From NCBI GenBank assembly GCA_016192685.1, contig JACPTS010000001.1:311647-375646 (forward strand): 64,000 nucleotides of DNA. The letters are read 5' to 3'. Source of the DNA: Candidatus Harrisonbacteria bacterium. Its GTDB lineage: Bacteria; Patescibacteriota; Minisyncoccia; UBA6257; 02-FULL-45-10c. Positions within the stretch are counted from its first letter, which is position 1, and every line of letters starts with the position of its first letter. The notes beneath the pieces were generated by a model. The model worked only from the letters and a program-made list of their open reading frames with translations. It was not told the DNA's origin and did no database searches. Shown piece after piece: positions 15,111 through 50,065 of this stretch. Both the position numbers and the translations under genes were made by a program.

Positions 15111-15262
15111 GATTCTCTACCTATATTTCTATCGGCACCGGCGTCGCTCCGCTCCAGCGGCGGAGCGCGCCTACGCCTCGCCGCGATTTTTGTTTCGCTT
15201 TGCGAAACAAACCAAGCAAATCGCGGCTCCGTAGTTGCCGTACGAAACATAGGCAGAGAATC
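15111..15262 (-). repeat. structured dispersed repeat, copy A (closing stem extends 15063-15299)
   Basis: + strand core CGGCACCGGCGT-hairpin(TCCAGCG)-CGCCTACGCCTC-stem-ACCAAGC-stem-TCCGTAGTTGCCGTACG, closed by a long inverted repeat. Confidence 0.9.
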
Positions 15263-15437
15263 TATAATCAAGAAATATATCTGCTTATTTTGAAAAATCT
15301 AACCTCGCTTAGTTGGGATTTTTTAAATGGACTTGACAATCGAAATTTTGTTATATATAATGTAAATAATGATTGATGTCCGCCTGCAAGCGGATATTTT
15401 ATTAAGACAACAGACGACTAACGACAGATAACAACAT

Positions 15438-16802
15438 ATGTTTAATTTAAAAGAACTAAAAAAAGCCGTAGAACAAATTGCCCAGGAAAAAGGCGTAGAG
15501 GCGAAAAAAGTTTTTGAGGCGCTGGAAGCGTCTTTGGCGGCTGCTTATAAAAAAGAATATTGCCAGAGGGGGGAAGTGGTTAAAGCGAAATTTGACCAAA
15601 AAACCGGCGGGCTTAAATTTTGGAAAATAAAAACTGTGGTTGATGACACTACGGTGAGAATTGTTGAAGAGGAGCCGGTTCCGGAAGGCGGAGCGCCGGA
15701 AAACGAATCTCGGCGCGCGCGAGAAGAATTTATGCCGGAAGGAGAGGATGTTTTACCTCGTTACAATCCCGATCGGCATATTTTTCTGGAAGAAGCTAAA
15801 AAGGAAAAACCGGACGTAATTTTAGGGGAAGAATTAATTTATCCCTTAGAAACTCACGATGATTTCGGCCGGATTGCCGCCCAAACCGCCAAACAGGTGA
15901 TTCTCCAGAAATTGCGGGAAGCAGAGCGAAATTCAATTTTAGAAGAATTTCACAATAAAGAAGGCGAGATTATCAGCGGCGTAATCCAGCGATATGACCG
16001 CGGCAATGTTTATGTGGATTTAGGCCGGGCAACCGGAATTATGTTTTATAACGAATCTATTCCGGGAGAACATTATACGGTCAGCGATCGGATGCGTTTT
16101 TATATTTTAGCGGTTCAGGAAGAATCAAGAATTCCCGGAATTATTTTATCCCGATCTCATCCGAAATTTGTCAGCCGACTTTTTGAGCTGGAAGTCCCGG
16201 AAATTGCCGACGGCGTAGTAGAAATTAAAGCGATCGCGCGGGAACCGGGCAGCCGCAGTAAAATCGCGGTAGTTTCCAAAACTGAAGGCATTGATCCGGT
16301 TGGTTCCTGCGTCGGCCAGCGCGGCACTAGAGTAATGGCGGTTTCTAATGAGTTGGGACAGGAAAAAATTGATATTATTGAATGGTCGGAAGATCCGGCT
16401 AAATTTATTACCAATGCTTTATCTCCGGCCAAGGTGACTGGCGTTGAAATTTTACCGCGCCGGGAAGCTAAAACTTTTGTTCCAGACGACCAATTAAGCT
16501 TGGCCATCGGCAAAGGAGGGCAAAATGTGCGTCTGGCGGCCAAACTGACCAGCTGGAAAATTGATGTTCGCTCCCAGTCAAAACCGGATGAAGTTTTAGA
16601 GGGCGGCGTGGCAGCGGCAATTCCGACTGAAGAAGTAAAAAAGGGGCTGGAAGAAAATAAAGAAGAGAAATCAGCAGAAGAAAAAAGCCCCGAAGCGGTT
16701 GCTTCGGAAATAGAATCTCAAGAAGCTAAACCCCCCGCCTCCGCCGAGGCTTCGGCGGGCAAGAAAAAACGAGGCCGAAAAAAGAAAGCTGAAACTCAAT
16801 AA
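15438..16802 (+). CDS. nusA: transcription termination/antitermination factor NusA
   Basis: [14 protein letters not shown]1 domain, [25 protein letters not shown]. Confidence 0.98.
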
Positions 16803-16812
16803 TAGAGACTTT

Positions 16813-18786
16813 ATGTATCTACTAGTTTTTCTCCCAATTATTTTAGCCGTCGCTTACAGCGCTTATATAATGTATTGGCTTTCCTGCCAGCCGAAAGGAA
16901 ACGCCAAAATGCTGGAAATTTCTCAGGCAATCCAGGAAGGCTCGGCGGCTTTTTTAAATCGCCAGTATAAAAGTGTCGCTGTGGTCGCCGCGATTTTATT
17001 GCTTATTATTTATTACCTGCTGGGCAGTATGTCCGCCCTTGGATTTTTAGTTGGCGCCTCGGCATCGGCGTTGGCTGGCTATATCGGAATGAATGTGGCG
17101 GTCCGTTCCAATTCCCGGACTGCCGAAGCCGCCAATCAAGGTTTAAATTCCGCGCTGACTCTTGCCTTTAAAGCCGGCTCGGTAACCGGATTTTTAGTGG
17201 TAGCCTTGGGACTGCTGGCGATTGCCGGATTTTATTTTTTAACCAATGACCCCAAAGCTTTAATTAGTCTCGGTTTTGGCGCCAGTTTAATTTCTGTTTT
17301 TGCCCGCCTGGGCGGAGGAATTTTTACCAAAGCCGCGGATGTCGGCACGGATTTAGTCGGTAAAGTGGAAGCCGGCATTCCCGAAGACGACGTCCGGAAT
17401 CCGGGCGTGGTAGCGGATAATGTCGGAGATAATGTCGGCGATTGCGCCGGCATGGCGGCCGACCTTTTTGAAACTTACGCGGTAACTTTGATTGCCGCGA
17501 TGCTTCTTGGCTCGCTGATTGATAAAAGCGCTGCCGGTCCTTTAGTAATTTTCCCGCTGGTGCTCGGCGGCCTGGCGATTTTAGCATCGCTGGTTGGATC
17601 GGCTCTGGTAAAAACCGGCTCAAGCAATTCCATTATGGGAGCGCTTTATAAAGGATTAATCGGGGCTTTGGCTGCTTCGGCGATTTTATTTTATCCGGCT
17701 GCCAGATTTTATCTTGGCGAAGGTTATTGGAATTTTTATCTGACTACCCTGATAGGCCTCGCGGTAACCGCGCTAATGGTGGTGGTAACTGATTATTACA
17801 CGGCAAAAAATTACCGGCCAGTCCAATCCATTGCCGAAGCGTCCAACTCCGGTCATGGCACTAATATTATTTTGGGACTCTCTGTTGGCATGGAAGCCAC
17901 TTTTGTTCCGGTTTTAATTATTGTTTCAGCGATTCTTTTAAGTTTTTCTTTGGCTGGGATTTATGGCGTGGCGCTCGCGGCGGTTTCTATGCTTTCGGTA
18001 GCCGGAATTGTAGTGGCAATTGATTCTTTTGGCCCGGTGACTGACAATGCCGGCGGCATTGCCGAGATGAGCGGAGCTCCCCAGAACGTACGGCAAATCA
18101 CTGACGCGCTGGATGCGGTTGGCAATACCACCAAAGCGGTTACTAAGGGCTACGCCATTGCTTCAGCCGGGCTGGCGGCATTAGTTTTGTTTGCCGGATA
18201 TGTTGAAGAGTTTGCCGCGCAGGCAAAAAATTTAGTTTTTGAATTAGAAAATCCTTATGTAGTAGCGGGATTAATTTTAGGCGCGGCAGTTCCCTACCTT
18301 TTTGCTTCTATTGCGATGAAATCCGTAGGCCGTGCCGCTGGCGCAGTGGTAGAAGAAATCCGCCGGCAGTTCCGGGAAATTCCCGGAATTATGGAATACA
18401 AAGCTAAGCCGGATTATGGCCGGGCTGTAGATATTGTGACTAAAGCCGCGCTCAAAGAAATGGTAGTGCCGGCAGTACTTCCGATTTTGTCAGTGGTTTT
18501 AGTCGGATATTTTTTGGGAGCGCAAGCTTTAGGCGGATTTTTAATGGGCACGATTGTCGCCGGACTTTTTTTGGGAATTTCCATGACTACCGGCGGCGCG
18601 GCGTGGGATAACGCCAAAAAATATATTGAATCCGGCAACTTCGGCGGCAAGGGCTCGGAAGCCCATAAAGCCGCGGTTACCGGCGACACAGTCGGCGACC
18701 CCTACAAAGACACGGCCGGCCCGGCAATCAATCCGCTGATTAAAGTTATAAATATAGTAGCTTTATTATTAGTGCCATTTTTATAA
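16813..18786 (+). CDS. hppA: membrane-bound pyrophosphatase, probably K+-independent H+-PPase
   Basis: [34 protein letters not shown] (Lys at the K+-dependence position), [10 protein letters not shown]. Confidence 0.95.
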
Positions 18787-18789
18787 TTT

Positions 18790-18935
18790 AAAGCTCTATA
18801 TATCTTCCTACCGGCACCGGAGTCCGCTTGCTCCAGCGGCAAGCGGCTCCTACGCCTCGCTCCGAAATTTTTGCTTCGCGAAAACCAAGCATTTCGGAGC
18901 TCCGTAGTTGCCGTACGAAAGATATATAGAGCTTT
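18790..18935 (-). repeat. structured dispersed repeat, copy B
   Basis: same core motifs as copy A with compensatory stems (GGAG/CTCC, CCGCTTGC/GCAAGCGG). Confidence 0.9.
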
Positions 18936-18945
18936 TGAAAAATTT

Positions 18946-19158
18946 ATGTCAGTTAAACTTGGAATTTATGAGCATTATAAAGGAAAAAAATATGAGGTAA
19001 TCGGAATAGCAAAGCATAGCGAAACTTTGGAGGAATTAGTAGTTTATCGGGCGCTTTATGGCGAAAATCAGTTATGGGTTAGGCCTATAAAAATGTTTAT
19101 AGAGGAAGTGGAAGTTGCCGGCAAGAAAATTCTGCGATTTAAATATATTGGGAAATAA
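18946..19158 (+). CDS. DUF1653 family protein
   Basis: G.Y.HYKGK.Y.V...A.HSET.E..VVYRALYG....WVRP..MF; start taken as ATG 18946. Confidence 0.88.
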   Translation: MSVKLGIYEHYKGKKYEVIGIAKHSETLEELVVYRALYGENQLWVRPIKMFIEEVEVAGKKILRFKYIGK

Positions 19159-20412: not shown

Positions 20413-20413
20413 T

Positions 20414-21016: not shown

Positions 21017-21088
21017 CGCAAGCCCGCAAGGCTTGCGATTTTTTTATTTTCGGGTTATTTTCTAATAAAAGGCTTTTGAGGAGAACGG

Positions 21089-21430
21089 ATGTCCATTGAT
21101 AAATTTTATGCCTGTTGGGAGGGGATGCATTTTTCCAATGCTGAATATGGAATTTGGGATTTGCCTTTTATCTATTTTTTGCATGACTGTTTGGGGGAAC
21201 GGCGGGGAGGAATTTTATTTTTAGCGGTTGACGGCGTAGAGCGGCGGCTTGGTGCTGATCGGGTAAAAATTCTAAAAAAGATATTCCAATCTCGGGATTT
21301 TGATAAAGTAATTTTACGTCCAGATGAAGATAATAACCTTTATTGCCTTGTTGCCGATACTGGCGATGATGAAGCGGATTGGATTTGGGTGGGAGAAATT
21401 ATTGACCCCACTGATCCGCGGCAGCGCTAG
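21089..21430 (+). CDS. hypothetical protein
   Basis: GAGGAG SD; 113-aa ORF with no recognised motif. Confidence 0.55.
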   Translation: MSIDKFYACWEGMHFSNAEYGIWDLPFIYFLHDCLGERRGGILFLAVDGVERRLGADRVKILKKIFQSRDFDKVILRPDEDNNLYCLVADTGDDEADWIWVGEIIDPTDPRQR

Positions 21431-23535: not shown

Positions 23536-23544
23536 ATAAAACAT

Positions 23545-25965
23545 ATGGCGAAAATAACTAAAATTTTAAAATTCGGCGGTTCTTCGGTAGGAACGCCAAA
23601 AATGATTAAAAAGGTTGGTGAGATTGTTAAAATTGCTTCCAAAAAAGATAGGGTGGCAGTGGTAGTTTCGGCATTTCAGGGGGTGACTGATCAGCTTTTA
23701 AAGTGCGCCAAGCTTGCTGCCCAAAATAATTCTAAATTAGAAATAGAATTGAAAAATTTAAAAAATCGTCATTTTCAAGCCATTCAGTTATTAGTTGAAA
23801 ATAAAAAGTTAAAAGGAGGAAGTTTAAATTATGCGGAAAATTTATTTAAAGAACTGCAATTTATTTTAGAAAAGATTGCTAAGGAGAAAATAGCTTCGCC
23901 AAAAAATTTAGATTGGGTCGCTAGTTTTGGCGAGCGGCTTTCCGCTTATATCATCGCGGCTTCTATAAAAAATGCTTATTTTGTTGATGCGAGAGAATTA
24001 GTAAAAACTAATAATAATTTTACCAAGGCCGCTGTTGATTTTGGAAAAACCAATCGTCGAATCAAAAATTTCTTTAAAAATAAAAAGGGGATTCCTATTA
24101 TAACTGGGTTTCTTGGTTCTACCGCGAAAGGCGAAACTATTACTTTGGGGCGAGGCGGGTCTGATTATACCGCCTCAATTTTTGGCGCAGCATTAGAAGT
24201 AAAAGTTATAGAAATTTGGACAGATGTGGATGGCGTGATGAGCGCCGATCCACGATTAGTCCGAAGCGCTCAAGTTTTACCAAAAATCAGTTACGAAGAA
24301 GCTGTAGAAATGGCTTATTTTGGAGCTAAAGTGATTCATCCGGCCACCATGCTTCCGGCAATTAAAAATGGCATTCCGATTTTGATTAAAAATACTTTTA
24401 ATCCAAAAGCGCTCGGAACTTTGATTCAGAAAGAATTAATACCGGCGCCGACGATTAAAGGAATAACCGCGATGGATGATATTTCGTTAGTTACGATTAG
24501 GGGTGTCAGTTTGGCAGGAATTCCCGGTAGCGCCGCCAGAGTTTTTAGCGCCACCGCCAAAGCCAAGGCAAATGTTATTTTAATTTCACAAGCCTCTTCC
24601 GAACACACTATTTGCTTTGCCGTTAAAACTAATGAGCTTCGGGCCGCGCTGGGAGGGTTAAAAAAGGAATTTCAAAAAGAAATAAAATACAGGCAAGTCG
24701 GTATAAATACTATTTTAAATCAATCCATTCTTGCCATGGTTGGCGATGGGATGCGCGGCGTCCCCGGTATCGCGGGGCGGCTTTTTAGCATGCTTGGTGA
24801 TAATGGAGTTAATGTAACTGCCATTGCCCAAGGCGGCTCCGAACGGAATATTTCTTTTGTGGTTGACGCTAAAAATAAAGTGAAGGCTTTAAATGTTGTT
24901 CATGGGGAATTTTTTGAAGGCGGCGTGAAAAATATCTTTCTAGCCGGAACCGGCAATATCGGCAGCGCCCTACTTAATCAAATTTATTCAATATTAAGGA
25001 CATCGGGTGTCCAAAGATTGAAAATACGCGGCATAATTGACGCTTTTAATATGATAATAAATGAGCGCGGGGTTAATTTAAGAAACTGGAAAAATAAATT
25101 AAAAAAAGCAGAAAAACCAAACTTTAATAAATGGCTAGAACAAACAAAATCTTTGCCATTGGGAAATAAAATTTTTGTAGATTGCACTGCCAGCGAAGCG
25201 GTGGCTAAAAAATATATTGAAATTGCGGAAGCCGGATTCCATATCGTGACGCCGAATAAGAAATTTAATGTTTTGCCGATGAAAGAATATCGGAAATTGC
25301 GTGAGGTAATGGTGAAAAATAAAAAGCAGTTTTTATACGAAACCAATGTCGGCGCCGCTTTGCCGATTATATCCACTTTGCGGGATTTGCTGAAAACCGG
25401 CGATAAAATTACCAAAATTGAAGGTATTTTTTCCGGAACTCTTAGTTTTATCTTTAATTCTTACGACGGCAGTCGGTCATTCAGTGAAGTGGTAGCGGAA
25501 GCGAAAAAACTTGGATACACAGAGCCGGATCCGCGCGAAGATTTAAACGGCAATGATGTTGGCAGAAAGCTTTTAGTGCTTGCGCGGGAAACTGGATTAG
25601 AAATGGAAATGAAAGACATAAAAATTGAGAATTTAGTTCCGCGCACACTGCTATCTCGCGGGATAGCACCGGAAGATTTTTTAAAGAGACTGGAAAAATA
25701 TGATGACTATTTTAAAAAATTATTAGAAAAAGCAAAATCTAAAAATAAAGTTCTCCGATATGTCGCCAAATTAGAAAAAGGAAAGGTGGCCGCGGGATTA
25801 CAAGAAATTTCTTTAGATAACCCGCTTGCCAATACCAGAGATGCTGACAATATTTTTGCTTTTTACACCAAGCGATATAATAAAAGGCCTTTGGTCGTTC
25901 AGGGTCCGGGAGCTGGACGGGAAGTAACTGCGGCTGGGGTGCTGGCGGATATTTTAAGAATATGA
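23545..25965 (+). CDS. thrA: bifunctional aspartokinase/homoserine dehydrogenase
   Basis: KFGGSSV, TLGRGGSDYTA, two ACT domains, G.GNIG, YETNVGAALP, EPDPREDL.G.DV. Confidence 0.96.
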   Translation: MAKITKILKFGGSSVGTPKMIKKVGEIVKIASKKDRVAVVVSAFQGVTDQLLKCAKLAAQNNSKLEIELKNLKNRHFQAIQLLVENKKLKGGSLNYAENLFKELQFILEKIAKEKIASPKNLDWVASFGERLSAYIIAASIKNAYFVDARELVKTNNNFTKAAVDFGKTNRRIKNFFKNKKGIPIITGFLGSTAKGETITLGRGGSDYTASIFGAALEVKVIEIWTDVDGVMSADPRLVRSAQVLPKISYEEAVEMAYFGAKVIHPATMLPAIKNGIPILIKNTFNPKALGTLIQKELIPAPTIKGITAMDDISLVTIRGVSLAGIPGSAARVFSATAKAKANVILISQASSEHTICFAVKTNELRAALGGLKKEFQKEIKYRQVGINTILNQSILAMVGDGMRGVPGIAGRLFSMLGDNGVNVTAIAQGGSERNISFVVDAKNKVKALNVVHGEFFEGGVKNIFLAGTGNIGSALLNQIYSILRTSGVQRLKIRGIIDAFNMIINERGVNLRNWKNKLKKAEKPNFNKWLEQTKSLPLGNKIFVDCTASEAVAKKYIEIAEAGFHIVTPNKKFNVLPMKEYRKLREVMVKNKKQFLYETNVGAALPIISTLRDLLKTGDKITKIEGIFSGTLSFIFNSYDGSRSFSEVVAEAKKLGYTEPDPREDLNGNDVGRKLLVLARETGLEMEMKDIKIENLVPRTLLSRGIAPEDFLKRLEKYDDYFKKLLEKAKSKNKVLRYVAKLEKGKVAAGLQEISLDNPLANTRDADNIFAFYTKRYNKRPLVVQGPGAGREVTAAGVLADILRI

Positions 25966-27041
25966 AGAAAAGAGAGTTAAAAGTTAATAGTAAAAGGTTA
26001 AATGTTGGCATCTTGGGTGCCACTGGGATGGTTGGGCAGAGATTTGTGACGCTTTTGGAAAATCATCCGTGGTTTGAGGTGGTGAGTTTAGCGGCTTCGC
26101 CGCAATCGGCCGGGAAAACTTATGAGGAGGCAGTGTCTGGCCGTTGGGTTATGAAAAATTCAGTTCCAGAAAAATTACGCGGTTTAAAAATAAAAGTGGT
26201 TGAAGAAGATTTTGATGAAATTGTAAAAGAGGTGGACTTAGTATTTTCCGCTATTGATGCTGATAAAGAAAAAATCAAAGAAATTGAATTGCGATATGCC
26301 ACGGCTGGCGTGGCAGTAGTTTCCAATAATTCCGCGCATCGCTGGACCCAAGATGTGCCGATGATAATTCCCGAAATAAACGCGCATCATTTATCTTTAA
26401 TTGATATCCAGAAGAAAAATCGGGGTTGGGAAAAGGGGTTGCTCGTAGTGAAGCCAAATTGTTCTTTGCAGTCATATCTTCCAGTAGTATACGCGCTTAA
26501 AAAATTCGGCCCTAAAGAAGTTTTAGTTACGACTTTGCAGGCAATTTCCGGCGCCGGAAAAACTTTTGAATCGTGGCCGGAAATGCTGGATAACTGCATT
26601 CCTTTTATAAAAGGCGAGGAAGAAAAAACTGAAAAAGAACCGACAAAAATCTGGGGCGCGGGCTGTCCGGCTATTTCCGCCACCTGCATCCGTGTTCCAA
26701 TCTCGGATGGCCATATGGCAAGCGTTTCGGTAAAATTTGAAAATAAACCCTCGTTACAACAAATAAGAGATGCGATTGATAGTTTTCCAAATCCTTTGGC
26801 TAGCTTAGACTTACCGTCAGCTCCAAAAAAATTTATCAAATATTTTCTAGAAGATGATCGGCCGCAGACTAAATTAGATCGGGATTATGAAGGCGGCTTG
26901 GGCATTACTTGCGGGAGATTTCGCGAAGATGGAAATAATAGCTGGAAATTTGTTTCTCTTTCCCATAACACAATCCGTGGCGCTGCCGGCGGAGCGATTT
27001 TAATCGCCGAACTTTTGTATAAGAAAGGATATTTAAAATGA
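25962..27041 (+). CDS. asd: aspartate-semialdehyde dehydrogenase
   Basis: GILGATGMVGQ, KPNCS, QAISGAG, HNTIRGAAG. Confidence 0.96.
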   Translation: MKKRELKVNSKRLNVGILGATGMVGQRFVTLLENHPWFEVVSLAASPQSAGKTYEEAVSGRWVMKNSVPEKLRGLKIKVVEEDFDEIVKEVDLVFSAIDADKEKIKEIELRYATAGVAVVSNNSAHRWTQDVPMIIPEINAHHLSLIDIQKKNRGWEKGLLVVKPNCSLQSYLPVVYALKKFGPKEVLVTTLQAISGAGKTFESWPEMLDNCIPFIKGEEEKTEKEPTKIWGAGCPAISATCIRVPISDGHMASVSVKFENKPSLQQIRDAIDSFPNPLASLDLPSAPKKFIKYFLEDDRPQTKLDRDYEGGLGITCGRFREDGNNSWKFVSLSHNTIRGAAGGAILIAELLYKKGYLK

Positions 27042-27532
27042 AAGGAATTACTTTAATCGGAATGCCGGGATCGGGGAAATCTACTATCGGTAAATTACTT
27101 GCCAAAAAATTGGGGTGTAAATTTGTTGACTTGGATATCTTGATTAAAGAAAAAGAAAACCGCGGACATGAGGAAATTTTAGAAAAAGACGGCGGGGCGG
27201 AACTTTTGCGGCTGGAAAATTTGTATACTCTTGATTTGGATTTAGAAAATACCGTCTTTTCCCCCGGCGGAAGCATTGTTTATTCTTTGCCGGCAATGAG
27301 AAAACTCCAAAAAGAAACTAATATTATTTATTTAAAATTACCGCTTTTGGAAATAGAAAATCGTTTAGGCGGCAAAATTGATAGCCGGGGAATTGTTGGT
27401 TTTAAAGAAAAAGGGATTAAAAAGCTTTTTCGAGAACGGGATATTTTATATAAAAATTTTTCCCATAAAATCATTTCCTGTTTGGGATTAGATAAAGAAC
27501 AGCTTATTTATGAAATTTTACAGCACCAATAA
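27038..27532 (+). CDS. aroK: shikimate kinase (AroK)-family P-loop kinase; probable homoserine kinase from operon context
   Basis: GMPGSGKSTIG, FVDLD, SPGGS, R..LY; lies between asd and thrC with no thrB in the window. Confidence 0.75.
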   Translation: MKGITLIGMPGSGKSTIGKLLAKKLGCKFVDLDILIKEKENRGHEEILEKDGGAELLRLENLYTLDLDLENTVFSPGGSIVYSLPAMRKLQKETNIIYLKLPLLEIENRLGGKIDSRGIVGFKEKGIKKLFRERDILYKNFSHKIISCLGLDKEQLIYEILQHQ

Positions 27533-28868
27533 CCCTCCTTCGCATAAAGCTACGGAAGGCAAGAAAATCCATTTCGTTGATTTTAGAACGGCACTGCTAC
27601 AAGGATTGGCTTTAGATGGCGGACTTTTTATGCCGGAAAGATTTCCAAAATTGAATAAGAAATTCTTAAAAGATATTTCTAAAAAGGAATTTTGGAAAAT
27701 CGCTCTGGAAATCAGCAAAGGTTTTATTAAAGATATTCCGGAAAGAGAATTAAAGAAGATGCTAAAAGACGCTTTTAATTTTGAAGTGCCGCTGAAAAAA
27801 ATAAACGAAAATTTATATATTTTAGAGCTTTGGCATGGGCCAACTTTGGCTTTCAAGGATTTTGGCGCGCGGTTTATGGCCCGGCTCATGAATTATTACC
27901 TGCGCCGCGAAAAGGAAAAATTAAACATTATTGTCGCTACTTCTGGGGACACCGGGAGTGCGGTGGCGCAAGGATTTTATGGATTATCTAACATAAAAGT
28001 TTTTGTTTTATATCCGAGTAAACGCATAACTGCGCTTCAAGAAAAACAAATGGCAACGCTCGGTAAAAACATTGTGTCATTGGAAGTAAAAGGAAATTTT
28101 GATGATTGCCAAAAACTTGCCAAACAAATATTGGCAGATAAAGATTTAAAAGAAAAAATAAATTTATCTTCAGCCAATTCTATAAATTTTGGAAGATTAC
28201 TTCCGCAATCCTTTTATTATTTTTACGGTTATGCCCAATTACTAAATAAGTTAAAAGTTAAAAGTGAAAAATTAAAAGTTATTTATTGTGTTCCCAGCGG
28301 GAATTTCGGCAATTTAACCGCCGGATTAATGGCGAAACAAATGGGTTTGCCCGTGAAACAATTTATCGCGGCGACGAATGCGAATGATATTGTTCCGCAA
28401 TATCTCAGAACCGGAAAATTTGTTTCACGCGTTTCGTGTAAAACAATTTCTAACGCCATGGATGTCGGCAATCCGAGCAATTTTGCGAGGATGCTGGAAA
28501 TGTTTCACGGCGATGTAAAACAAATGCGCCGCGAAATTATTGGTTTCGGTGTAAGTGACAAACAAACGCGTGAAACAATTAAAAATGTTTATCGTAAAAC
28601 CGGCTATATTTTAGATCCGCATACTGCGGTTGGAATTGCCGCGGCGCGCAAAAGCAATATTTTGCAACCGATTATCGTATTAAGCACCGCGCATCCTGCT
28701 AAATTCAGAGAAGCGGTGGAGCCGGTTATAAGCAAAAAGATTTCCTTGCCGCCGCAGCTCAAAAAAATTATTAATAAAGCCAAAAAGGCGACTTTGGTGG
28801 AAAATAATGTTGAGACGGTTAAGCGGATTATTTTAGAAAAATATGGACATATCAAAAAAACCGCCTGA
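27510..28868 (+). CDS. thrC: threonine synthase
   Basis: GLA.DGGLF, HGPTLAFKDFG, ATSGDTG, SANSIN, PSGNFGN, DPHTA, TAHPAKF. Confidence 0.97.
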   Translation: MKFYSTNNPPSHKATEGKKIHFVDFRTALLQGLALDGGLFMPERFPKLNKKFLKDISKKEFWKIALEISKGFIKDIPERELKKMLKDAFNFEVPLKKINENLYILELWHGPTLAFKDFGARFMARLMNYYLRREKEKLNIIVATSGDTGSAVAQGFYGLSNIKVFVLYPSKRITALQEKQMATLGKNIVSLEVKGNFDDCQKLAKQILADKDLKEKINLSSANSINFGRLLPQSFYYFYGYAQLLNKLKVKSEKLKVIYCVPSGNFGNLTAGLMAKQMGLPVKQFIAATNANDIVPQYLRTGKFVSRVSCKTISNAMDVGNPSNFARMLEMFHGDVKQMRREIIGFGVSDKQTRETIKNVYRKTGYILDPHTAVGIAAARKSNILQPIIVLSTAHPAKFREAVEPVISKKISLPPQLKKIINKAKKATLVENNVETVKRIILEKYGHIKKTA

Positions 28869-30117: not shown

Positions 30118-33100
30118 TTACCAGTTGTAGCCGAGCCAGAAATTCCAGTCTTGCTTTCCGTATAATCCTTTACTGAATCTTGCATTCAGTCCGAGCGCAG
30201 TCGGGATATTTATGAAATATCCGGCGCTTTGCTCTAACTTCAATCCGCGATGCCCTTCAATAAACGGGGATGTTTTATCAAACCACATATCGCCAATATC
30301 ATGATATAACCCGCCGCGAATATCCAGATAAACGGTAAGCGGAGCAAACGCTTCACCAATTGGTCCGCTTATCACCGCGCCAGCCGCATTGAGAATCGGA
30401 AAACGCAATTCCGTGCTTTGCATGAGATAGCTGTTGCCCGCCTGACTGAATAACGGAATGCCTCGGAAAGTTTGATTGCCGCCCCAGATGAAAATAGTGG
30501 AATTGGGGCCGAAACTTCGGCCGCCAACCGCGCGCAATGCCAAACCGGCTCGCTCAGCGAGCGGCAAATGATATCGGGCATCCGCGTTTATTTCAATAGT
30601 TTGGAATCCTTTCTTGTGGTCAAAACCAATTTCGGTTCCGGTAAAAACCGCGGCTCCGGAATGCGGGCCGTGGCAATACCATTGATTGGCTTGGCAGTCC
30701 CAGATAGTGGTGTCTAAACTCAAGCTGGTGCCGAGCTTGGAACGCCACCATTGTACCGTGCCGGAATCCCGTTCATTTCTCACCGTTTGTTCTTTGAGGG
30801 TAACATCCCAATTGAGGAATTCATGCAGGAAGATATTTTGCGAAACGCCGACATCCATTTTATGGCGCCGGCCGTCAAAATTCCAATAGTCAAGCAGATA
30901 AGATCTGCCGGTATGCAAATTGTAATACTGGATATCCGCAAACCCCTGATTGCTGTTTTGGAGGTAAACATTGGCTGCCAATAATCGGTCATTAATTTCA
31001 TCAAGGGCCATTCCTTGCAGAGCCAGATAGCTGTTGATGCCGCCGCCGCCGAAAATAACGCCGCCAACGCCTTGAGCCTGCATTATTCTGGGCAACTTCA
31101 ATAAATTTCGGTATCGCTTTGGAATGCCGGATTTGGTATTCCATTGCCTAGCGGGAACCGCTGTTTGTTTTGAATTAACGCCGTAAGAAGAATAAACAAT
31201 CAAGTACGGAGAATTTTCGTCATTAGTTTCCATCAGGCCGCTTCCGTATACCCTTATGTTTCTATCCAGACCATAGGCATTGCCGACGGTTAAAAAGAGA
31301 GTATCATTTTTTAATTCAGCTTTTTTGACTAGCGGGATTCCGGAAGCAACCGGTGTCAGGCTGCTGGAAGCGGTGTCAAACAGAAAAATATCCAAACCAG
31401 TTTCTTTCTGCGGAACAATAAGGAATATTTTCGCTCCGTTCAGAAGCGGGTACCAGGCGATTTGTTTTTCCACCTTGACGTTCTCGGGAAAAATTTTATC
31501 CCAAGTTTTATCGGTTTCGGTGGTTACATCAAGTTCGCTGATGCTGGCATTCCATTTTTTATCCAATACCAGAATTTTGGTTTCCGATACAAAAGCCGCG
31601 TCTTGTATTTCATAGAATTCTTTACGGAATTTCTTTTTTTCTTTGCCTATTGCGTCGTAAAGAATAATTTTTGTGCGGCTCTTATCAGCCCAAATGAAAT
31701 AACGCTGGTCCGGAGACAACTTGGACAGGAAACGATTGCTTCCGGAAGATTCAGACGTGATTTCCGTATCTAGGTCATGGATTTTACCCTCCAGCCAATC
31801 GTAGATATAAGATTCTTTGTATATCACTTCTTCTTCCGGGTTTTGGGCATCGGTAATTTCGCTGTTTTTTTCAATGCTTATCATCCGCCTTTGCAATAAG
31901 GCGTTGGTTCCCGCAAGTAAAGAAATGCCGCCGTAATGTTTCATCTTTTTGAATTCATCAAGAGTGAATTGGATTGCCGTTCCAGTGGAAGAATCTGTGA
32001 GCCAGAAGCGCATTTCCGTATCGCCGCTCTTGAGAACTTCCATTGATAATTTTCTGTTTTCAACAAATAGCGCCCTGGTTTTATCTGAAGACAATGCTAC
32101 GTCAAAAATCGTCTTAGATTCCGCATCGGGAATTTTTTCACGCAGGCGCCGCACTTCAGGCCTATCCCATATTGAATCAGTGGAATGGCTGGAAGTGTTC
32201 GCAGTTACGGATGTTGAAATTGAGATTGTTTGGGGAAAAGGAGCGGTTTTTACCGACATTTCTCCTCGGGAAATAAAATTGAACGCCAATCCGCCATCGC
32301 CAAACCATTGGGGCCTAAAGATGCCGATTTTCGCGTCAGTCAATACTTCGTCAACGCGCGTGAAAAGATTGTAGCGGTGAATATTATGCGCCAATCCTTT
32401 ATCGCTGATATACAGCAAGTGGGCGCCATCAGAGGAACAAGCCGCGTAAAATTCGCTTTCCGGCGTTTGGGTTAAAAATGTAAATGTTCCGGCCGCAAGA
32501 TCGTAGAGCGCCAAGTCGTAAGAATTATTAACTTCGTTTTCAACGGAGGTAATAAGCGCGTTGCGCATTTTTGAGTAAGCCAGGCCGCGATAAGTTCGTT
32601 GGGTTGAAGTCAATTGTTTTACGGTTCCGGAACTAATATCGGCCAAAAAAAGTTCGGCGAATACGCCGTCGGCTCTGCCGACAAACGCCGCTTCTCGGTC
32701 ATTCAATATAATAGGATGCCGCATTTCGCGTATGCCATTGAATTGATGCTTAGATTTTTTGCCAAGATGAAATTTCTTTTTGTCTTTATCAAATGAAAAC
32801 TGCTGGATGACAAGCGCGTCTTGGCCGCCGACATCTATGGCGTAAGCCAGCGTTGCGCTGGAAGCAAATGACGCGCCGTGTTCCTGAAAGCCGAATTCCG
32901 GAGAAAGCTCCACTTCAAATCCTCTGACATCAACGCTTTTTAATCGGCCGCCTTCAACTAATTTTTTGGATTTTACAGCTGTGCCGTCAGTCCAGTTGAG
33001 AAACAGCGTTTCCCGGCCGTAAACTTCTTTTTTGGTGATGAAGAATTGATCGCGAGCGGCCAGAAGTGTTCCGTCGCCAATTGATATTGCTTCATCGGCA

Positions 33101-34017
33101 ATATCGGTTTTTATCCGAAGAGGCGAGTAGCGCTGTTCAATGTGCCGCCAGAGTTTTTTATCAAATTCTTCCAGGGTGTCACCGGTTGCCTTTTTAAAAG
33201 CTTTGGCGAATTTCATTTCTGCGCTGGCTTTAAGAATGGCGCTGATAACATCGCCTTTTTCTTTATAATGAGCGGCCATAAAGTGGAGAATGAATTCTCC
33301 TTCTTTATAGACCAAGCTGGTGTACCAGGGGCTCCATTTACTGATTCTCGCGAGATAGCCGTTAAGATAAGCGTCTCGCATAACCAGCTCTCCGCGCGGA
33401 TCCCATTCGTGGGCCATATGTTCAGCTGACCCCTCTATGAACCAGAGAGGCAAATCGCGGAACATAAAGTTCATCAGCGTAAGCCGAAGAAATTCGCCTT
33501 GATATCTGTGAGTCAATTCATGTCTTAATAGCCTTTGGAATCCTCGCGGTGAATCGCGGAAGGCGATAACTACGCGTTTCCATTTAATCATCTCGGTTTC
33601 GCCGCCCAATCCCTTGGGCACCAATCCCCAGATAATATTTGCCTCTTCGAAATCGCGGGAAGAATTGAAAATCACGATGCGGATTTTCTCCGCAAAATGA
33701 TTCATGTTCATTTTCTCGCTGAATTCCTTATAGGTTGCTTCGGCGTTTTCAAGATAGAGAGCCGCCAGTTGTTCGCTGTTGCCGTAAGTGTAAATTTGAA
33801 AGTGCGGAGATTCCAGCACTTTCCAATCGTATTTGCCGTAACGCGGTTTATTTTTGTGGAGATGGCCGTTGGGCAAAAAATCCACGTATTTGAAGTCAAT
33901 TTCCGGAAAAATATATCTCTCTAATGTTTCCAGTGTGTCAGCATAGCTTTGAGTTTTGAAACTAAGCGAAGCAATAAGAATTGCAGACAAAAACAGCAAT
34001 TTCTGTTTTAGCTTCAT
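30118..34017 (-). CDS. large secreted protein: zincin (HELTH) peptidase MA-like domain, TolB-like beta-propellers and C-terminal Omp85/BamA-like barrel
   Basis: signal peptide from ATG 34017; LRHELTH..Q and PLWFIEG.AE; propeller repeats; GG..TFRG...ELRFP and terminal FWLGYNW. Confidence 0.72.
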   Translation of the reverse strand: MKLKQKLLFLSAILIASLSFKTQSYADTLETLERYIFPEIDFKYVDFLPNGHLHKNKPRYGKYDWKVLESPHFQIYTYGNSEQLAALYLENAEATYKEFSEKMNMNHFAEKIRIVIFNSSRDFEEANIIWGLVPKGLGGETEMIKWKRVVIAFRDSPRGFQRLLRHELTHRYQGEFLRLTLMNFMFRDLPLWFIEGSAEHMAHEWDPRGELVMRDAYLNGYLARISKWSPWYTSLVYKEGEFILHFMAAHYKEKGDVISAILKASAEMKFAKAFKKATGDTLEEFDKKLWRHIEQRYSPLRIKTDIADEAISIGDGTLLAARDQFFITKKEVYGRETLFLNWTDGTAVKSKKLVEGGRLKSVDVRGFEVELSPEFGFQEHGASFASSATLAYAIDVGGQDALVIQQFSFDKDKKKFHLGKKSKHQFNGIREMRHPIILNDREAAFVGRADGVFAELFLADISSGTVKQLTSTQRTYRGLAYSKMRNALITSVENEVNNSYDLALYDLAAGTFTFLTQTPESEFYAACSSDGAHLLYISDKGLAHNIHRYNLFTRVDEVLTDAKIGIFRPQWFGDGGLAFNFISRGEMSVKTAPFPQTISISTSVTANTSSHSTDSIWDRPEVRRLREKIPDAESKTIFDVALSSDKTRALFVENRKLSMEVLKSGDTEMRFWLTDSSTGTAIQFTLDEFKKMKHYGGISLLAGTNALLQRRMISIEKNSEITDAQNPEEEVIYKESYIYDWLEGKIHDLDTEITSESSGSNRFLSKLSPDQRYFIWADKSRTKIILYDAIGKEKKKFRKEFYEIQDAAFVSETKILVLDKKWNASISELDVTTETDKTWDKIFPENVKVEKQIAWYPLLNGAKIFLIVPQKETGLDIFLFDTASSSLTPVASGIPLVKKAELKNDTLFLTVGNAYGLDRNIRVYGSGLMETNDENSPYLIVYSSYGVNSKQTAVPARQWNTKSGIPKRYRNLLKLPRIMQAQGVGGVIFGGGGINSYLALQGMALDEINDRLLAANVYLQNSNQGFADIQYYNLHTGRSYLLDYWNFDGRRHKMDVGVSQNIFLHEFLNWDVTLKEQTVRNERDSGTVQWWRSKLGTSLSLDTTIWDCQANQWYCHGPHSGAAVFTGTEIGFDHKKGFQTIEINADARYHLPLAERAGLALRAVGGRSFGPNSTIFIWGGNQTFRGIPLFSQAGNSYLMQSTELRFPILNAAGAVISGPIGEAFAPLTVYLDIRGGLYHDIGDMWFDKTSPFIEGHRGLKLEQSAGYFINIPTALGLNARFSKGLYGKQDWNFWLGYNW

Positions 34018-34159
34018 GATTATTTTCTTTATTTGGATATCAATGAATCTGAATAGATTGTACGGAAAAATAGCGGACAAGTCAAAGCGCTGTTTTCCTT
34101 GCTCTTTTTTGGGGTTGCGCTTACTATTTTAATAGATTGCCTTTGAAAATTAATTAGAG

Positions 34160-37202: not shown

Positions 37203-37263
37203 CCAACAGCCCCGCGCTTACATAGGCGGGGCTTTTGTTTTTTAAAAACCTCGCGTCAAACTG

Positions 37264-37295
37264 GTTAACAATATTACGATCGTAACATTGTTAAC
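37264..37295. repeat. CGATCG-centred palindrome downstream of the PaaX/Cas2-like gene
   Basis: GTTAACAATATTACGA|TCGTAACATTGTTAAC (1 mismatch). Confidence 0.92.
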
Positions 37296-37316
37296 TAAAA
37301 TAATTTATTCTTTTAT

Positions 37317-37889
37317 CTAATTTAATGACCCCTTTTTAATTACCCTAAAAATATGTATATAAGAAGTTAATTCGAGTTTTTCTATATCAAATAAAAAATC
37401 TTCTGGAATTTTATATTCTCCCGCCCACACACTTTTTTGCAGCATTTCAAATGCTAATAATTTTAATTGTTTTCTTAACCATATTCTTTTATATTTTAAT
37501 CTTTCCGGTATGTCAAAAATTATAAGATTTAAAGCACTATCTTTATGGGGTGCGTATAATCTTTTCGGAAAATAAGCAGTTTTGAATATTTTAATTTTTT
37601 CTAATTTTTGTATACCGTTTTTAGTAATTTGCCAATGCGATAACCCTTTTATTTTTTGTTTTTTTATAAAACCCTGTTTTTTAAGACGAGAAAGTAGGGC
37701 GAAAAAGCTTTTTTCTTGTAATCTTTCAATCTGTTTTTTATTTAGTTTTTCAGGATAAGTATAACCGTGCATTACTCGGCGCATTGCCTTGTAAGTTTTT
37801 TGATATCCAGGAATAATGTCGTCTATAAGTTCGGCGGTAACTAAAACTTTATGGCGCAATTTTTTTAATATAATTTCTGTTTGGGTCAT
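37317..37889 (-). CDS. PaaX-like protein: winged HTH plus Cas2-like domain
   Basis: LSRLKKQGFI....WQIT..G wHTH; LIIFDIPE..K.KR.WLR..L....F..LQKSVW Cas2-like motif. Confidence 0.85.
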   Translation of the reverse strand: MTQTEIILKKLRHKVLVTAELIDDIIPGYQKTYKAMRRVMHGYTYPEKLNKKQIERLQEKSFFALLSRLKKQGFIKKQKIKGLSHWQITKNGIQKLEKIKIFKTAYFPKRLYAPHKDSALNLIIFDIPERLKYKRIWLRKQLKLLAFEMLQKSVWAGEYKIPEDFLFDIEKLELTSYIHIFRVIKKGSLN

Positions 37890-37912
37890 ACTTATATTTT
37901 ATTCATTAACGC

Positions 37913-37948
37913 TAGTTAACAACATTACGATCGTAATATTGTTAACTA
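37913..37948. repeat. CGATCG-centred palindrome upstream of the PaaX/Cas2-like gene
   Basis: TAGTTAACAACATTACGA|TCGTAATATTGTTAACTA (1 mismatch). Confidence 0.92.
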
Positions 37949-39891: not shown

Positions 39892-40033
39892 GCTATACCT
39901 ATTTACCTACCGGCACCGGCGTCGGTCGCCTCCTGCGGGCGACCGCGCCTACGCCTCGCCGCCAAAAGTCCCGCATAGCGGGACACCAAGCTTTCGGCGG
40001 CTCCGTAGTTGCCGTACGATAAATAGGTATAGC
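39892..40033 (-). repeat. structured dispersed repeat, copy C
   Basis: same core; stems CGGTCGCC/GGCGACCG and GTCCCGC/GCGGGAC. Confidence 0.9.
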
Positions 40034-42311: not shown

Positions 42312-42520
42312 ATTTCCCTCCTTTTTTGATCGGAATGTTCTGTTTTATATATTATTTCAATATCAAAAATAAATCAAGTTTTTGCTTTGTAAATTTTTTT
42401 AAATTATAGAAGGCCGCGTTAGCGACCTACATTATTATCTACAACTATCCCTCAAAGAAGTTGAAAATATATTTGATTTGGCTATGTGCCGTGCGGCAAC
42501 TATTTTAATTTGAATTTCTA

Positions 42521-42668
42521 GCCGCTCTGCCGAGTTGTCGTAGAGAAACTACGGAGCCCCAAAAAGATTGGTGTCCCGCCATGCGGGACTTTTTGGGGCG
42601 AGGCGTAGCGGGCTCGCGCCGCTGGAGCGCGAGAACCGCGGTTCTCATAGACAATTCGGCGGAGCGGC
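42521..42668 (+). repeat. structured dispersed repeat, copy D (inverted, nested in a relic copy)
   Basis: GTAGAGAAACTACGGAG...GATTGGT...GAGGCGTAG...CGCTGGA...GTTCTCATAG with a 19-bp closing stem. Confidence 0.88.
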
Positions 42669-42716
42669 CGTCAAAAAATGCCGGTGCTGATAGACAAATA
42701 GACAGAGCTTAATAAA

Positions 42717-44509: not shown

Positions 44510-44868
44510 CTGGAAAAATTCAAAACTTTTTCTTAAAACTCCAGCAAGAAGATGAAGCCACCCGAAAGCGCTGGCTGATAATTTTAACTTCCGGAACCAT
44601 GGCCGTAGTGGTCAGCCTTTGGCTGGTTTACCTTAATTTTACGATTAAAGCGCTGGCTCCGGAACCGCCAAAAGAAGAAGCGGGATTTTTTAAAACTTCC
44701 GCCAACGGCCTTCAAATCATCTCGCAAGAAACCGCCTTAAAAATCAGCCAATTAAGCGCCTATCTAAAATCGCTGGCCAATCAAACTAATTCCATTACTA
44801 TTCAGCCGGCAAATATTAATTTAATCCTGGAAGATTTAGAAACGGTCAAACCAAAAAAATTGCCTTAA
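44506..44868 (+). CDS. hypothetical single-TM protein
   Basis: translationally coupled; one TM helix; upstream of gyrA. Confidence 0.6.
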
Positions 44869-44884
44869 CTTTACGGAAAACTCA

Positions 44885-47353: not shown

Positions 47354-47423
47354 ATTTATTTCCTTGCCAGCATCAGCATTATTTTGAAATGCTGTTCCGC
47401 CGAATTGTCTACGAATTTTACTC

Positions 47424-47575
47424 GCCCTGCCTGTATTTCTGACGGCACAGCCCCGCTTTGCGGGGCTACGCCTCAACGCCAAAAATTTAGGCTACCATTA
47501 TGCGATCGCATAATGGTAGCCTAAATGCCGAGCTTTTGGCGTTTCCGTAGTTGCCGCACAAAACACAGGCAGAGC
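47424..47575 (-). repeat. structured dispersed repeat, copy E, containing a 42-bp perfect palindrome (47485-47526)
   Basis: CGGCAC..CTACGCCTC..GCCGAGC..TCCGTAGTTGCCGCAC core. Confidence 0.88.
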
Positions 47576-47780
47576 TCGTTAAATTATTTATGGAATTTCT
47601 CCACGATAGCTTAACAAATCGGCAATAAATAAAAAAACGAAATAGAACTTCTTAGTTGCCGCACGACAGATAGGTAGCTTACTTTAATGTCTATATTTTA
47701 GCGCGCGCTTGACAGAGCATTGGAAATATGATATACTATTTTTAAGCTGAAAAGTTGCACATTCATAAAGGAGGTATAAC

Positions 47781-48260
47781 ATGGGCATTTTGGTTCAAGG
47801 AATTCTCTGTTATGGATTCCGCATCAAGGACGAAGATGGTAACGAGGAAAACGTAACCATCAACTGGCTCCCCAAAGATCCAGACGGTGCTGAGGGGGAC
47901 TTCGAGGACTTTCTCGCTAAGCTGTTCGGCCTTAAAGAACCTGACAGTCAATACGACGAAAAGAGGTATGCCACAGACCCAGAGTATAAGAGGATGTGGA
48001 GCAGTTACTGGGAAAAGAAAAACAAGCTCGAAGAAGAGATTGGGGTAACCCTTGTTCATCACTGCTCTGGCGAACAGCGAATGTGTATCTTGGCTGTCAC
48101 GGAATCAGTGCGGGAAGCGAACTGGGGTGAGCCTGTCAATCTTGGTCAATCCATCACCGACAAGCAGACGGAGTGGCGAGAGAAACTTCGTGCCTTCTGC
48201 GAACGAGTGAATATCCAATTTGAAGAGCCTCAGCTTATCCTTTGCAGCTACTACGGATGA
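47781..48260 (+). CDS. hypothetical acidic protein (accessory)
   Basis: TTGACA promoter, AAGGAGGT SD and its own terminator; codon style differs from neighbours. Confidence 0.7.
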   Translation: MGILVQGILCYGFRIKDEDGNEENVTINWLPKDPDGAEGDFEDFLAKLFGLKEPDSQYDEKRYATDPEYKRMWSSYWEKKNKLEEEIGVTLVHHCSGEQRMCILAVTESVREANWGEPVNLGQSITDKQTEWREKLRAFCERVNIQFEEPQLILCSYYG

Positions 48261-48410
48261 GACTTTGGCAGTCGAATTGGAATCTCCAGGAGGCCAACCA
48301 GCGATAACATCAAGGTTGGCCTCTTTCTTTTTTAAAATTTCCCGCCAAAGCGAAAGCCAAGTCTGACTTGGCGAAAGCTGAGGCGGTTTTTATATTGAAT
48401 TAGATTAAGA

Positions 48411-48579
48411 GCTCCGCCTCTCTGTTGTGCGGCAACTACGGAGCCGCTAAAAGCTTGGCCTTCTACCTAACTATCTGACGATCGTCAGATAGTTAGGTAG
48501 AAGTTTTGGCAGCGAGGCGTAGGCGGCGCCGACCACAGGAGTCGGCGAACGCCGGTGCCGGTAAACAGAGAGGCGGAGC
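48411..48579 (+). repeat. structured dispersed repeat, copy F (inverted), containing a 44-bp perfect palindrome (48460-48503)
   Basis: GTGCGGCAACTACGGAG..GCTTGGC..GAGGCGTAGGCG..CACAGGA..ACGCCGGTGCCGGTA core. Confidence 0.9.
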
Positions 48580-48600
48580 GATTTGTTGTATAATTAAAAT

Positions 48601-49911
48601 ATGAACTTTTCTCGTTCCCAGCTTGTTATTCTTGGTTCAGTGCTTTTTATTGTTCTTCTTTTGGTTGGCATTTTTACCGGAGTTTTGCCGGGTACCCGCC
48701 AACTCCGGGAAAAACCGCCGGAATTGACTCTGGCTGTCTGGGGAATTGATGAACAAGAATTATTTTTGGAAAATATCAATGCTTACGAAACTCTTCGGCC
48801 GAATGTCCGGGTGGATTACGAAGAATTGGACCCGGCCACTTATGAAGAGAGGATTATTAACGCGCTGGCTGCTGGCGCCGGGCCGGATATTATAATGTTC
48901 CATAATTCCTGGCTGCCGAAACACTATAATAAAATCGTGCCGGTTGGCGACACCCAGCTTAACCTTAAAACCCTGAAAGAAATCTTTCCGGCTGTTGTGG
49001 AACAAGATTTCGCGCCAGACGGGAAAATCCGGGCGCTTCCATTATATATAGATACCCTGGCGTTGTTTTATAATCAGGATACTTTTGATAAAAACGGCAT
49101 TGCTGTTCCGCCAAAAGACTGGCTGGATTTTCAGAATCTTTTGCCGAAATTGCGCGAACGCGACGGTTCCGGCCGAATCACTAAAGCCGGAGCGGCCATC
49201 GGCGGCTCCGAAAAAACCATTGCCAAGTCCGCGGATTTGCTGATGCTTCTGATGCTTCAAGCCGGCGCCAAAATGACCGATGATGGATTTAGCCAAGCTA
49301 CTTTTGCCAGCAATGTCGGCGGCCAACTGCCCGGCATTGACGCTTTAAATTTTTACGCCAAATTCAGCGATCCCCGGGATAATTATTACACCTGGAATGA
49401 TGGCTTGGAATATTCCCTGGACAGTTTTTCGCGCGGCAACGCGACAATGATTTTCCATTACGCGAGAGAACGGAAAAATATTAAAAGTAAAAATCCTTTC
49501 CTCAATTTTAAAACCGCGGAAATGCCTCAGCCGACCGGCGCGGAAAAAGCCGTTAATTACCCGGATTACTGGGGATTGGCGGTTACCAATAACAGCAAAA
49601 ATCCGGACTGGGCCTGGGATTTGATTCTTTATTTGACCGCCAATGATGCCGCCGCGGAAACTTATTTAAAAACTGCTGACCGGCCGCCGGCGCTCCGTTC
49701 TTTAATCCAAAAATACGCTAACCATCCGGAACTCGGCGCTTTTACCAAGCAAGCGCTTTCCGCCCGTTCCTGGCCGCAAATTGATAAAGATGCCATCCGG
49801 CTGATTTTTTCCGATATGATTCAGGCGGTAATCAGCGGCCAGTTGGATTCCCAGGCCGCCGCGGCGCAGGCAGAACGGCAAGTAACCGAATTAATGAAAT
49901 CTCGCCGGTAA
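48601..49911 (+). CDS. ABC transporter extracellular solute-binding protein (family 1, sugar type)
   Basis: N-terminal anchor; A.G.GPDII, ALPL..DTLALFYN.D.F, PP.DW. Confidence 0.88.
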   Translation: MNFSRSQLVILGSVLFIVLLLVGIFTGVLPGTRQLREKPPELTLAVWGIDEQELFLENINAYETLRPNVRVDYEELDPATYEERIINALAAGAGPDIIMFHNSWLPKHYNKIVPVGDTQLNLKTLKEIFPAVVEQDFAPDGKIRALPLYIDTLALFYNQDTFDKNGIAVPPKDWLDFQNLLPKLRERDGSGRITKAGAAIGGSEKTIAKSADLLMLLMLQAGAKMTDDGFSQATFASNVGGQLPGIDALNFYAKFSDPRDNYYTWNDGLEYSLDSFSRGNATMIFHYARERKNIKSKNPFLNFKTAEMPQPTGAEKAVNYPDYWGLAVTNNSKNPDWAWDLILYLTANDAAAETYLKTADRPPALRSLIQKYANHPELGAFTKQALSARSWPQIDKDAIRLIFSDMIQAVISGQLDSQAAAAQAERQVTELMKSRR

Positions 49912-49925
49912 TTCGCGTTTCTTTC

Positions 49926-50065
49926 GCTTTGCTTATTTGCCTACCGGCACCGGCGTCGTTCCGCTCCTGCGGCGGAACGCGCCTACGCCTCGCTCCGAAA
50001 TTTTCGCTTCGCGAAAGCCAAGCATTTCGGAGCTCCGTAGTTGCCGTACGACAAACAAGCAAAGC
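49926..50065 (-). repeat. structured dispersed repeat, copy G
   Basis: same core; stems CGTTCCGC/GCGGAACG and GCTCCGAAAT/ATTTCGGAGC. Confidence 0.9.

Follow-up and report, generated by a model that had tools for sequence, protein, structure and literature searches.

The repeat family at the locus

The window analysed here is a stretch of 64,000 nucleotides of a Candidatus Harrisonbacteria genome (GCA_016192685.1, hereafter G000; 724,852 bases in 3 contigs, completeness 99.94). It corresponds to positions 311647-375646 of contig C1, and its gene content fits Candidatus Harrisonbacteria/Patescibacteria. Dispersed among its genes are seven look-alike stretches, A to G, which appear to be copies of one gene-less mobile repeat of these ultra-small groundwater bacteria (Patescibacteria), apparently undescribed. 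That the family is a mobile element carrying no gene of its own is, in our view, very probable. A covariance model built on 26 copies of this genome (R1) identified 31 full copies in G000 and a broader one built on 92 copies (R2) identified 32; seven of the 31 found by R1 lie in the window, which holds half-copies besides. Together the family occupies about 0.6% of the G000 genome. The copies and remnants of the window are as follows, with the palindromes found in the variable hairpin P4 of two of them.

15111..15262, minus strand: copy A, full element, antisense just past the stop of a 716-aa open reading frame (ORF); 144.6 bits
18790..18935, minus strand: copy B, full element, antisense, 3 nt past the stop of the H+-pyrophosphatase gene
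39892..40033, minus strand: copy C, full element with a tandem-GA end, sense to the upstream gene
42475..42503, plus strand: 5' half (P1-loop-P2) of an older copy around D
42521..42668, plus strand: copy D, full element of the GAGAA/TTCTC subtype, antisense, after an S1-domain (rpsA-like) gene
42680..42710, plus strand: 3' half of the older copy around D
47394..47415, minus strand: 3' half of a D-type remnant around E
47424..47575, minus strand: copy E, short P5, antisense, after gyrA; 87.9 bits
47485-47526: P4 of copy E, a perfect palindrome centred on CGATCG
47595..47623, minus strand: 5' half of the D-type remnant around E
47654..47678, minus strand: 5' half of a third remnant, the outermost, lying upstream of E
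48411..48579, plus strand: copy F, sense, 22 nt before a solute-binding-protein gene
48460-48503: P4 of copy F, a perfect palindrome centred on CGATCG
49926..50065, minus strand: copy G, full element with a GCGAAGC apical loop, antisense, 15 nt past the stop of the solute-binding-protein gene

The coordinates and strands of all seven copies agree with those of the original prediction, which had been made from the sequence of the window alone, and so do five antisense and two sense orientations relative to the upstream gene. Its named stem variants were also right, namely P5 in A, B, C and G, GGAG/CTCC in B, GAGAA/TTCTC in D and the short P5 of E. Its consensus modules can be parsed in all seven copies, except that D has GATTGGT and E has GCTCGGC as the 7-nt bulge, and P1 frequently reaches past the ends it had given to the elements.

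Architecture of the fold and the strand that carries it

Read along one strand, the fold begins with a closing stem P1 (mostly 14-27 bp) followed by a 3x3 loop, P2 and a three-way junction. The first arm comprises a GA/GAGG loop, P3, a 7-nt bulge (GCTTGG in 90 of 160 copies) and the variable hairpin P4, and the second arm, P5, is capped by a 7-nt loop that reads CGC(A/T/C)GGA in 135/160 copies. Across the phylum the bulge and loops are kept while all stems covary. Copies have fold z-scores of -8 to -10 as RNA and -8 to -13 as DNA. Among the 26 G000 copies, 97.9% of cells are paired and 42 of 52 pairs show changes on both sides; their covariation score was reached by 0/500 shuffles and lies far above slid controls. 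With 92 copies from many genera, in an alignment fitted to the structure, 94.7% of cells are paired and 52/52 pairs covary. P1 is the part least conserved in sequence, and all of its 14 pairs change on both sides. The earlier proposal of a single folded strand is thus borne out by covariation and by the strand polarity described below. We read the covariation as evidence of a fold in use, not necessarily of benefit to the host; it need not mean selection on function, because arm-to-arm copying within a DNA hairpin would make paired changes in one step.

The absence of a match to a known family, as first proposed, was upheld: no copy in the window matched Rfam at E<=5, and Rfam covariance models applied to 14 loci of other genomes likewise gave no match at E<=1. 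A K-turn reading of the GA/GAGG loop was ruled out by inspection against the consensus, there being no 3-nt bulge in register. No description of the family was found in the largely open-access literature searched; supplementary motif tables of surveys of non-coding RNA (ncRNA) or of papers on the bcr and RPE repeats could bear on its novelty.

Stem mismatches set the two strands apart, the fold strand having 317 G·T against 82 A·C in 160 distinct copies. This excess cannot be attributed to replication-linked deamination because it has the same sign on both replichores, with G·T:A·C ratios of 51:14 where the fold strand is G-rich (23 copies) and 82:29 where it is C-rich (48 copies); the strand-biased deamination that had been raised as a possible source of the bias therefore fails as far as it is linked to replication. 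Replichores were assigned in G000 from oriC near dnaA, at about 285 kb, and elsewhere from 20-kb stretches (26/28 right; 8/40 undecided and left out).

The loops of P4 could be parsed in 153 copies (7 were not parsable). Triloops made up 111 of them, including 77 GNA loops of which 68 were closed by C-G, while the reverse-complement TNC occurred once, GNRA six times and UNCG never (0). Tandem G·A on both arms of P1 at position 10 or beyond was seen in 46/155 copies, 39 of these at position 14 or 16; a mirror control gave 4 occurrences, never at positions 14 or 16. G·U pairs are scarce in the inner stems (P3, 32/1563 cells; P4, 8/964 cells). DNA mini-hairpins of the GCGNAGC type are described as exceptionally stable, with a melting temperature of 76.5 C vs 39 C for r(GCGAAAGC) (PMC13037366). 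The GNA mini-hairpins and tandem sheared G·A read from these sequences make it probable that the fold is one of DNA.

Distribution, insertion sites and signs of mobility

Outside G000, R1 found copies in 21/22 other genomes of the family (0-39 copies per genome across all 23 family genomes), in 31/150 genomes of the class and in 5/150 of the phylum, three of them outside the class. With R2, 80/150 genomes of the order were positive, some families reaching 7/7 and three families 0/7, and 0/50 genomes outside Patescibacteria gave a copy in a search that scored 65 candidates per genome without a positive control. A scan of contigs with a loose pattern gave real copies at 16/121 loci among the matches listed, the rest being mostly chance, and a pattern scan of metagenomes gave 89 loci, of which 61 match the model. 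Three DNA patterns applied to IMG/VR viral contigs returned 42, 61 and 0 loci, none of them a real copy by R1, and blastn of copy C against INPHARED phages and PLSDB plasmids gave no match.

Empty orthologous sites, for which a search had been proposed at the outset, were found. The loop of mnmA is filled in some genomes and empty in others: it is short and empty in four genomes of the family (G002, G003, G011, G015), holds antisense copies of different subtypes in G001, G007, G008, G020, G153 and G166, and carries other repeats in further genomes. In G000 the mnmA copy is sense, in frame and has a full model score; the peptides encoded differ among mnmA copies. At alaS, a full copy in G004 is matched by a cut-down remnant at the same place in G000. 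In-frame copies also occur in further genes at loci L524, L525, L529, L532, L533, L534 and L546; on inspection the hosts appear to be tgt, an O-antigen-ligase-like gene, parB, lepA, a cysteine desulfurase gene and mnmA.

In G000, halves of older copies surround other copies at five or more loci, in as many as three layers, D and E among them. Another, smaller repeat family occurs either empty or with the element in its apex, the insert being inverted in one G001 copy. This second family (G001, G004, G007, G012) is ~85-100 nt long, nests in itself and has near-perfect terminal inverted repeats of 20-26 bp that differ at every locus; such arms, peculiar to each locus, suggest that target DNA is copied in inverted orientation. 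P1, P2, P3 and P5 types of the main family combine freely between copies, and P4 of E, F and one further copy is a CGATCG-centred palindrome like those bracketing the mini-PaaX gene of the window (see below). As public contigs break inside each copy, some module combinations could be assembly errors, though each stem pairs within itself. Contigs of four DNA runs contained no joint skipping a single copy among the matches listed, which says nothing on excision because contigs drop rare variants. Two further observations from G000 concern derived forms: at C1 76228-76310 two 3' halves are fused head to head through P5, as recombination between inverted copies would give, and a diverged sister family that shares the architecture, with scores mostly under the model threshold, is present at C1 477850-478050, at 571780-572000 and in the first mnmA insert.

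Neighbours of the element are unrelated housekeeping genes that differ between loci, which supports the earlier argument against a gene-specific riboswitch. Its orientation had been called merely inconsistent and proved to be strongly biased near gene ends: where a stop codon lies no more than 25 nt away, antisense placements of the fold strand outnumber sense ones by 51 vs 8, and at 26-100 nt the counts are 20 vs 27. The stop codon overlaps paired P1 in 17/83 antisense cases. Copies inside long ORFs make up 13/168 of those from other genomes (~8%), 11 antisense and 2 sense. With respect to replication, 51/77 copies have their fold on the C-rich strand, the leading-strand template (p=0.006), and copies are antisense 30:11 beside leading-strand genes and sense 6:3 beside lagging-strand genes (p=0.047). 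There may thus be two orientation effects, one tied to replication, as in attC, and one to gene ends.

No target duplication of constant length was detected, 7-8-mers being at chance and 4-5-mers modestly above. Direct repeats of 5 nt flank 51/182 copies vs 19 expected and, among non-GA copies, 29/134 vs 14.5 expected (shuffle maximum 24). YGAR, the motif found at each end, forms a direct repeat and, equally, a G·A tandem that pairs with itself; 4-nt YTCR repeats stand at 3/6 antisense mnmA junctions, matching native codons on one side. This end motif suggests a short core or microhomology.

The enzyme that would move the element was sought among Y1, GIY-YIG, reverse transcriptase, PaaX and LAGLIDADG genes. 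G000 encodes one reverse transcriptase of the diversity-generating retroelement (DGR) type, one small GIY-YIG gene, two mini-PaaX and two LAGLIDADG genes, and PF01797 (Y1) is absent from it; reverse transcriptases occur in 76/151 genomes of the order. The Y1, GIY-YIG and PaaX genes inspected bear flanking repeats of their own. Y1-type genes of ~230 aa in the family (L277, L278, L279, L281, L282) are bracketed by their own 20-25-bp palindromes, and the mini-PaaX/Cas2-like gene of the window (37317-37889, minus strand) sits between two 36-bp CGATCG-centred palindromes (37262-37948). At about 270 kb of G000 C1 a second mini-PaaX gene is accompanied by a palindrome pair of its own; single palindromes are present elsewhere. 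At ~249.5-251.5 kb of C1, a putative DGR-like locus comprises a 330-aa reverse transcriptase, a small helical gene and a nearby gene resembling a lectin-type target. A stand-alone 152-aa LAGLIDADG gene (10514-10972) is also present in the window; it adjoins a UPF0102 gene, and no copy of the element lies near it. Pfam searches of 71 of the 101 small ORFs neighbouring copies revealed no recurring nuclease or transposase.

Two inverted pairs of G000 enclose phage-like orphan genes. Between the inverted copies E and F lies a 159-aa orphan gene (47709-48260) with a near-consensus sigma-70 promoter (11/12); its product resembles hypothetical proteins of tailed phages, searches of 400 other class genomes did not find it, and a search for a viral relative found none. 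A 100-aa phage-like orphan occupies a like position at L002:1777-2079. Between the members of three further inverted pairs lie alaS, comEC-type genes and mixed genes, which argues against gene capture by such pairs. Elsewhere in the window, genes for aspartokinase-homoserine dehydrogenase, asd, a kinase and threonine synthase stand in a row (23545-28868), an amino-acid pathway of a kind uncommon in Patescibacteria, and a 1320-aa ORF (30118-34080) has a weak peptidase M9 (collagenase-like) match.

Mechanism, alternatives and known systems

We favour, with a probability of roughly 60%, a non-autonomous mobile DNA element of Patescibacteria of about 140 bp that is recognised as a folded single strand and spread by nick-and-copy recombination. 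The strand would be exposed at the replication fork or in incoming transforming DNA, where a hypothetical nuclease or recombinase, of the host or acting in trans, would bind the conserved bulge and loop and nick it. Repair by strand invasion or hairpin-templated synthesis could then copy the element to new sites, often at short YGAR microhomology or inside an existing hairpin, and the same copying would swap modules and create the paired stem changes. Survivors may be filtered by the host, leaving copies just past stops, in tolerant protein loops and with the fold strand preferably on the leading-strand template. Of the two readings first offered, the mobile element of single-stranded DNA (ssDNA) is the one favoured by the GNA triloops, tandem G·A, nesting and filled or empty sites, and the ncRNA or ribozyme is not. 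More doubtful, and put forward tentatively, is the idea of a new class of ssDNA element with a branched DNA tertiary fold read by a Patescibacteria enzyme, serving as landing pad and shuttle for other repeats and, in inverted pairs such as the two of G000, capturing phage-derived genes together with the promoters belonging to them.

Several points weigh against a nick-and-copy DNA element. The nick-and-copy step is wholly our inference, and no mobilising enzyme emerged among the five gene types examined: no copy lies within ~1.5 kb of 72 loci (38 Y1, 29 GIY-YIG, 2 PaaX-like, 2 LAGLIDADG, 1 reverse transcriptase), and presence of the element is associated at genome level neither with Y1 (26/44 vs 55/107, p=0.47) nor with reverse transcriptase (44/76 vs 37/75, p=0.33). 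The co-occurrence with RAYT/Y1 or reverse transcriptase genes that had been proposed for checking is thus supported by neither adjacency nor association, and neither of the two PaaX-like loci adjoins a copy. No autonomous version was found among the 89 metagenome loci. No two G000 copies are the same (identity 93% in the closest pair, median 66%), hence no recent burst there. Since copies are related, independent events are fewer than the loop and tandem counts imply, and the replichore effect is a weak one, with small numbers and kin that are not independent. Some P1 pairs are G·U-capable and the antisense clustering at stop codons is tight (83 vs 26), both of which an RNA-level effect would also give. 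Motifs of ssDNA and RNA are described as hard to tell apart by sequence (PMC5737381), and sequence comparison cannot prove DNA over RNA.

An element acting as RNA in the manner of bcr1, either transcribed and folded or moved through RNA and cDNA by a DGR-type reverse transcriptase, is in our judgement unlikely. It would account for the commonest geometry, since cDNA of a read-through mRNA would leave the fold strand joined to an antisense gene end, and the 3' end does abut stop codons of convergent genes at the 51 vs 8 ratio given above. In 153/159 copies the fold strand, taken as RNA, exceeds its complement in stability, bcr1 is described as transcribed with a similar two-armed fold (PMC3184786), and the DGR-type enzyme of G000 and the reverse transcriptases of half the order's genomes (76/151) could supply the activity. 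Against this stand the GNA triloops in place of GNRA or UNCG, the few G·U pairs of the inner stems, the lack of association with genomes bearing reverse transcriptase, and the fact that the neighbouring gene would not transcribe the fold strand of most copies. That the element is a self-cleaving ribozyme or some further kind of autonomous ncRNA is very improbable, although the conserved junction and loop nucleotides and covarying stems might speak for it. Rfam, which holds the known ribozyme classes, gave no match, hammerhead core motifs were seen in 1/198 copies, the loops are of DNA type and the mnmA gene of G000 carries a full-scoring sense copy in frame.

We also find it improbable that the repeat is a classical MITE (miniature inverted-repeat transposable element), its inner fold being a by-product and P1 the terminal inverted repeat left by a lost DDE insertion sequence. 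Terminal inverted repeats are indeed present (P1, mostly 14-27 bp), short direct repeats near the ends are somewhat above shuffles (5-mers, 29/134 vs 14.5), and the size and AT-rich intergenic targets fit those described for such elements (PMC10969869). The inner loops hardly vary, however, and it is the terminal repeat that is conserved least, which is the reverse of a MITE; double-stranded recognition leaves the strand polarity unexplained, and neither a fixed-length duplication, with 7-8-mers at chance, nor an autonomous partner among the metagenome loci was detected. A domesticated host signal in ssDNA, such as a priming or restart site or a transformation handle kept by selection and spread secondarily, has in its favour the conservation of the motif across classes of the phylum, the replichore bias and the mini-hairpins described at ssDNA priming sites and N4 promoters (PMC13037366). 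On the other side, the element was not found in 70/150 order genomes, whole families among them (0/7 in three), its sites are not common to genomes, its copies decay and are broken up by other inserts, and the preferred strand is the less exposed template; we rate this reading a slim prospect.

Among systems recognised as ssDNA, REP/BIME with RAYT (PMC3333891) are likewise extragenic, strand-polar hairpins that form inverted doublets and mosaics, but the REP unit as described is a 30-40-nt hairpin, whereas here it is a branched 140-nt unit. The GTAG tetranucleotide once likened to a REP tag occurs in 121/198 copies, is base-paired (P2b), varies with its partner and is replaced in distant copies. 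Dispersed hairpins recognised as ssDNA are also described for NTS/SRM with Ssn GIY-YIG nucleases (PMC11893778); P4 of some copies looks like dRS3, and small GIY-YIG genes are common in the host family. The SRM pattern published there was found in 0/92 copies on both strands, and no copy flanks the 29 GIY-YIG loci of the family or the G000 locus, several of which have SRM-type flanks of their own. Integron attC sites, as described (PMC5371416), resemble the element in that structure rather than sequence is conserved and that the folded strand is antisense just past the stop and biased to the leading-strand template. Membership in attC was rejected: R''/R' boxes occur in 1/198 copies, the fold is branched, there are no cassette arrays and the neighbours are housekeeping genes. 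A nearby tyrosine recombinase, considered as an integron integrase, scores as Xer-type and falls far short of the integron-integrase cut-off (136.6 vs 265).

Natural DNA elements with a conserved fold beyond a hairpin are described as rare (PMC5737381). The family supplies about 200 aligned, covarying examples of a complex fold, probably of DNA, conserved across a phylum, and its two invariant loops are a ready bait for a new ssDNA-specific enzyme, as the NTS repeat was for the Ssn nucleases. Several repeats without genes of their own, nesting in each other and adding residues to housekeeping enzymes, are evidently present in streamlined Patescibacteria genomes. In practical terms, copies break assemblies, and annotation would wrongly take them for ncRNAs.

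Gene-less structured repeats in this size range are already known in bcr1 and RPE, and it is by comparison with published descriptions that the element is set apart from them. Like bcr1, a group A repeat of Bacillus cereus of ~155 bp, it combines a closing stem with two stem-loop arms, shows compensatory changes, lies at non-conserved genomic positions and encodes no enzyme (PMC3184786). Unlike the element, bcr1 is described there with a 5-bp direct repeat in each case, whereas no constant duplication was seen in Patescibacteria; bcr1 is read as an RNA fold, whereas the Patescibacteria element has DNA-type loops, nests and swaps modules. The RPE of Rickettsia are also palindromic, ~150 bp long and found in a reduced genome, both intergenic and in frame in unrelated housekeeping genes (PMC10969869). 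RPE are described in that account as encoding a conserved peptide and as nearly half intragenic, whereas the Patescibacteria element is ~8% intragenic, occurs in both orientations and yields peptides that differ.

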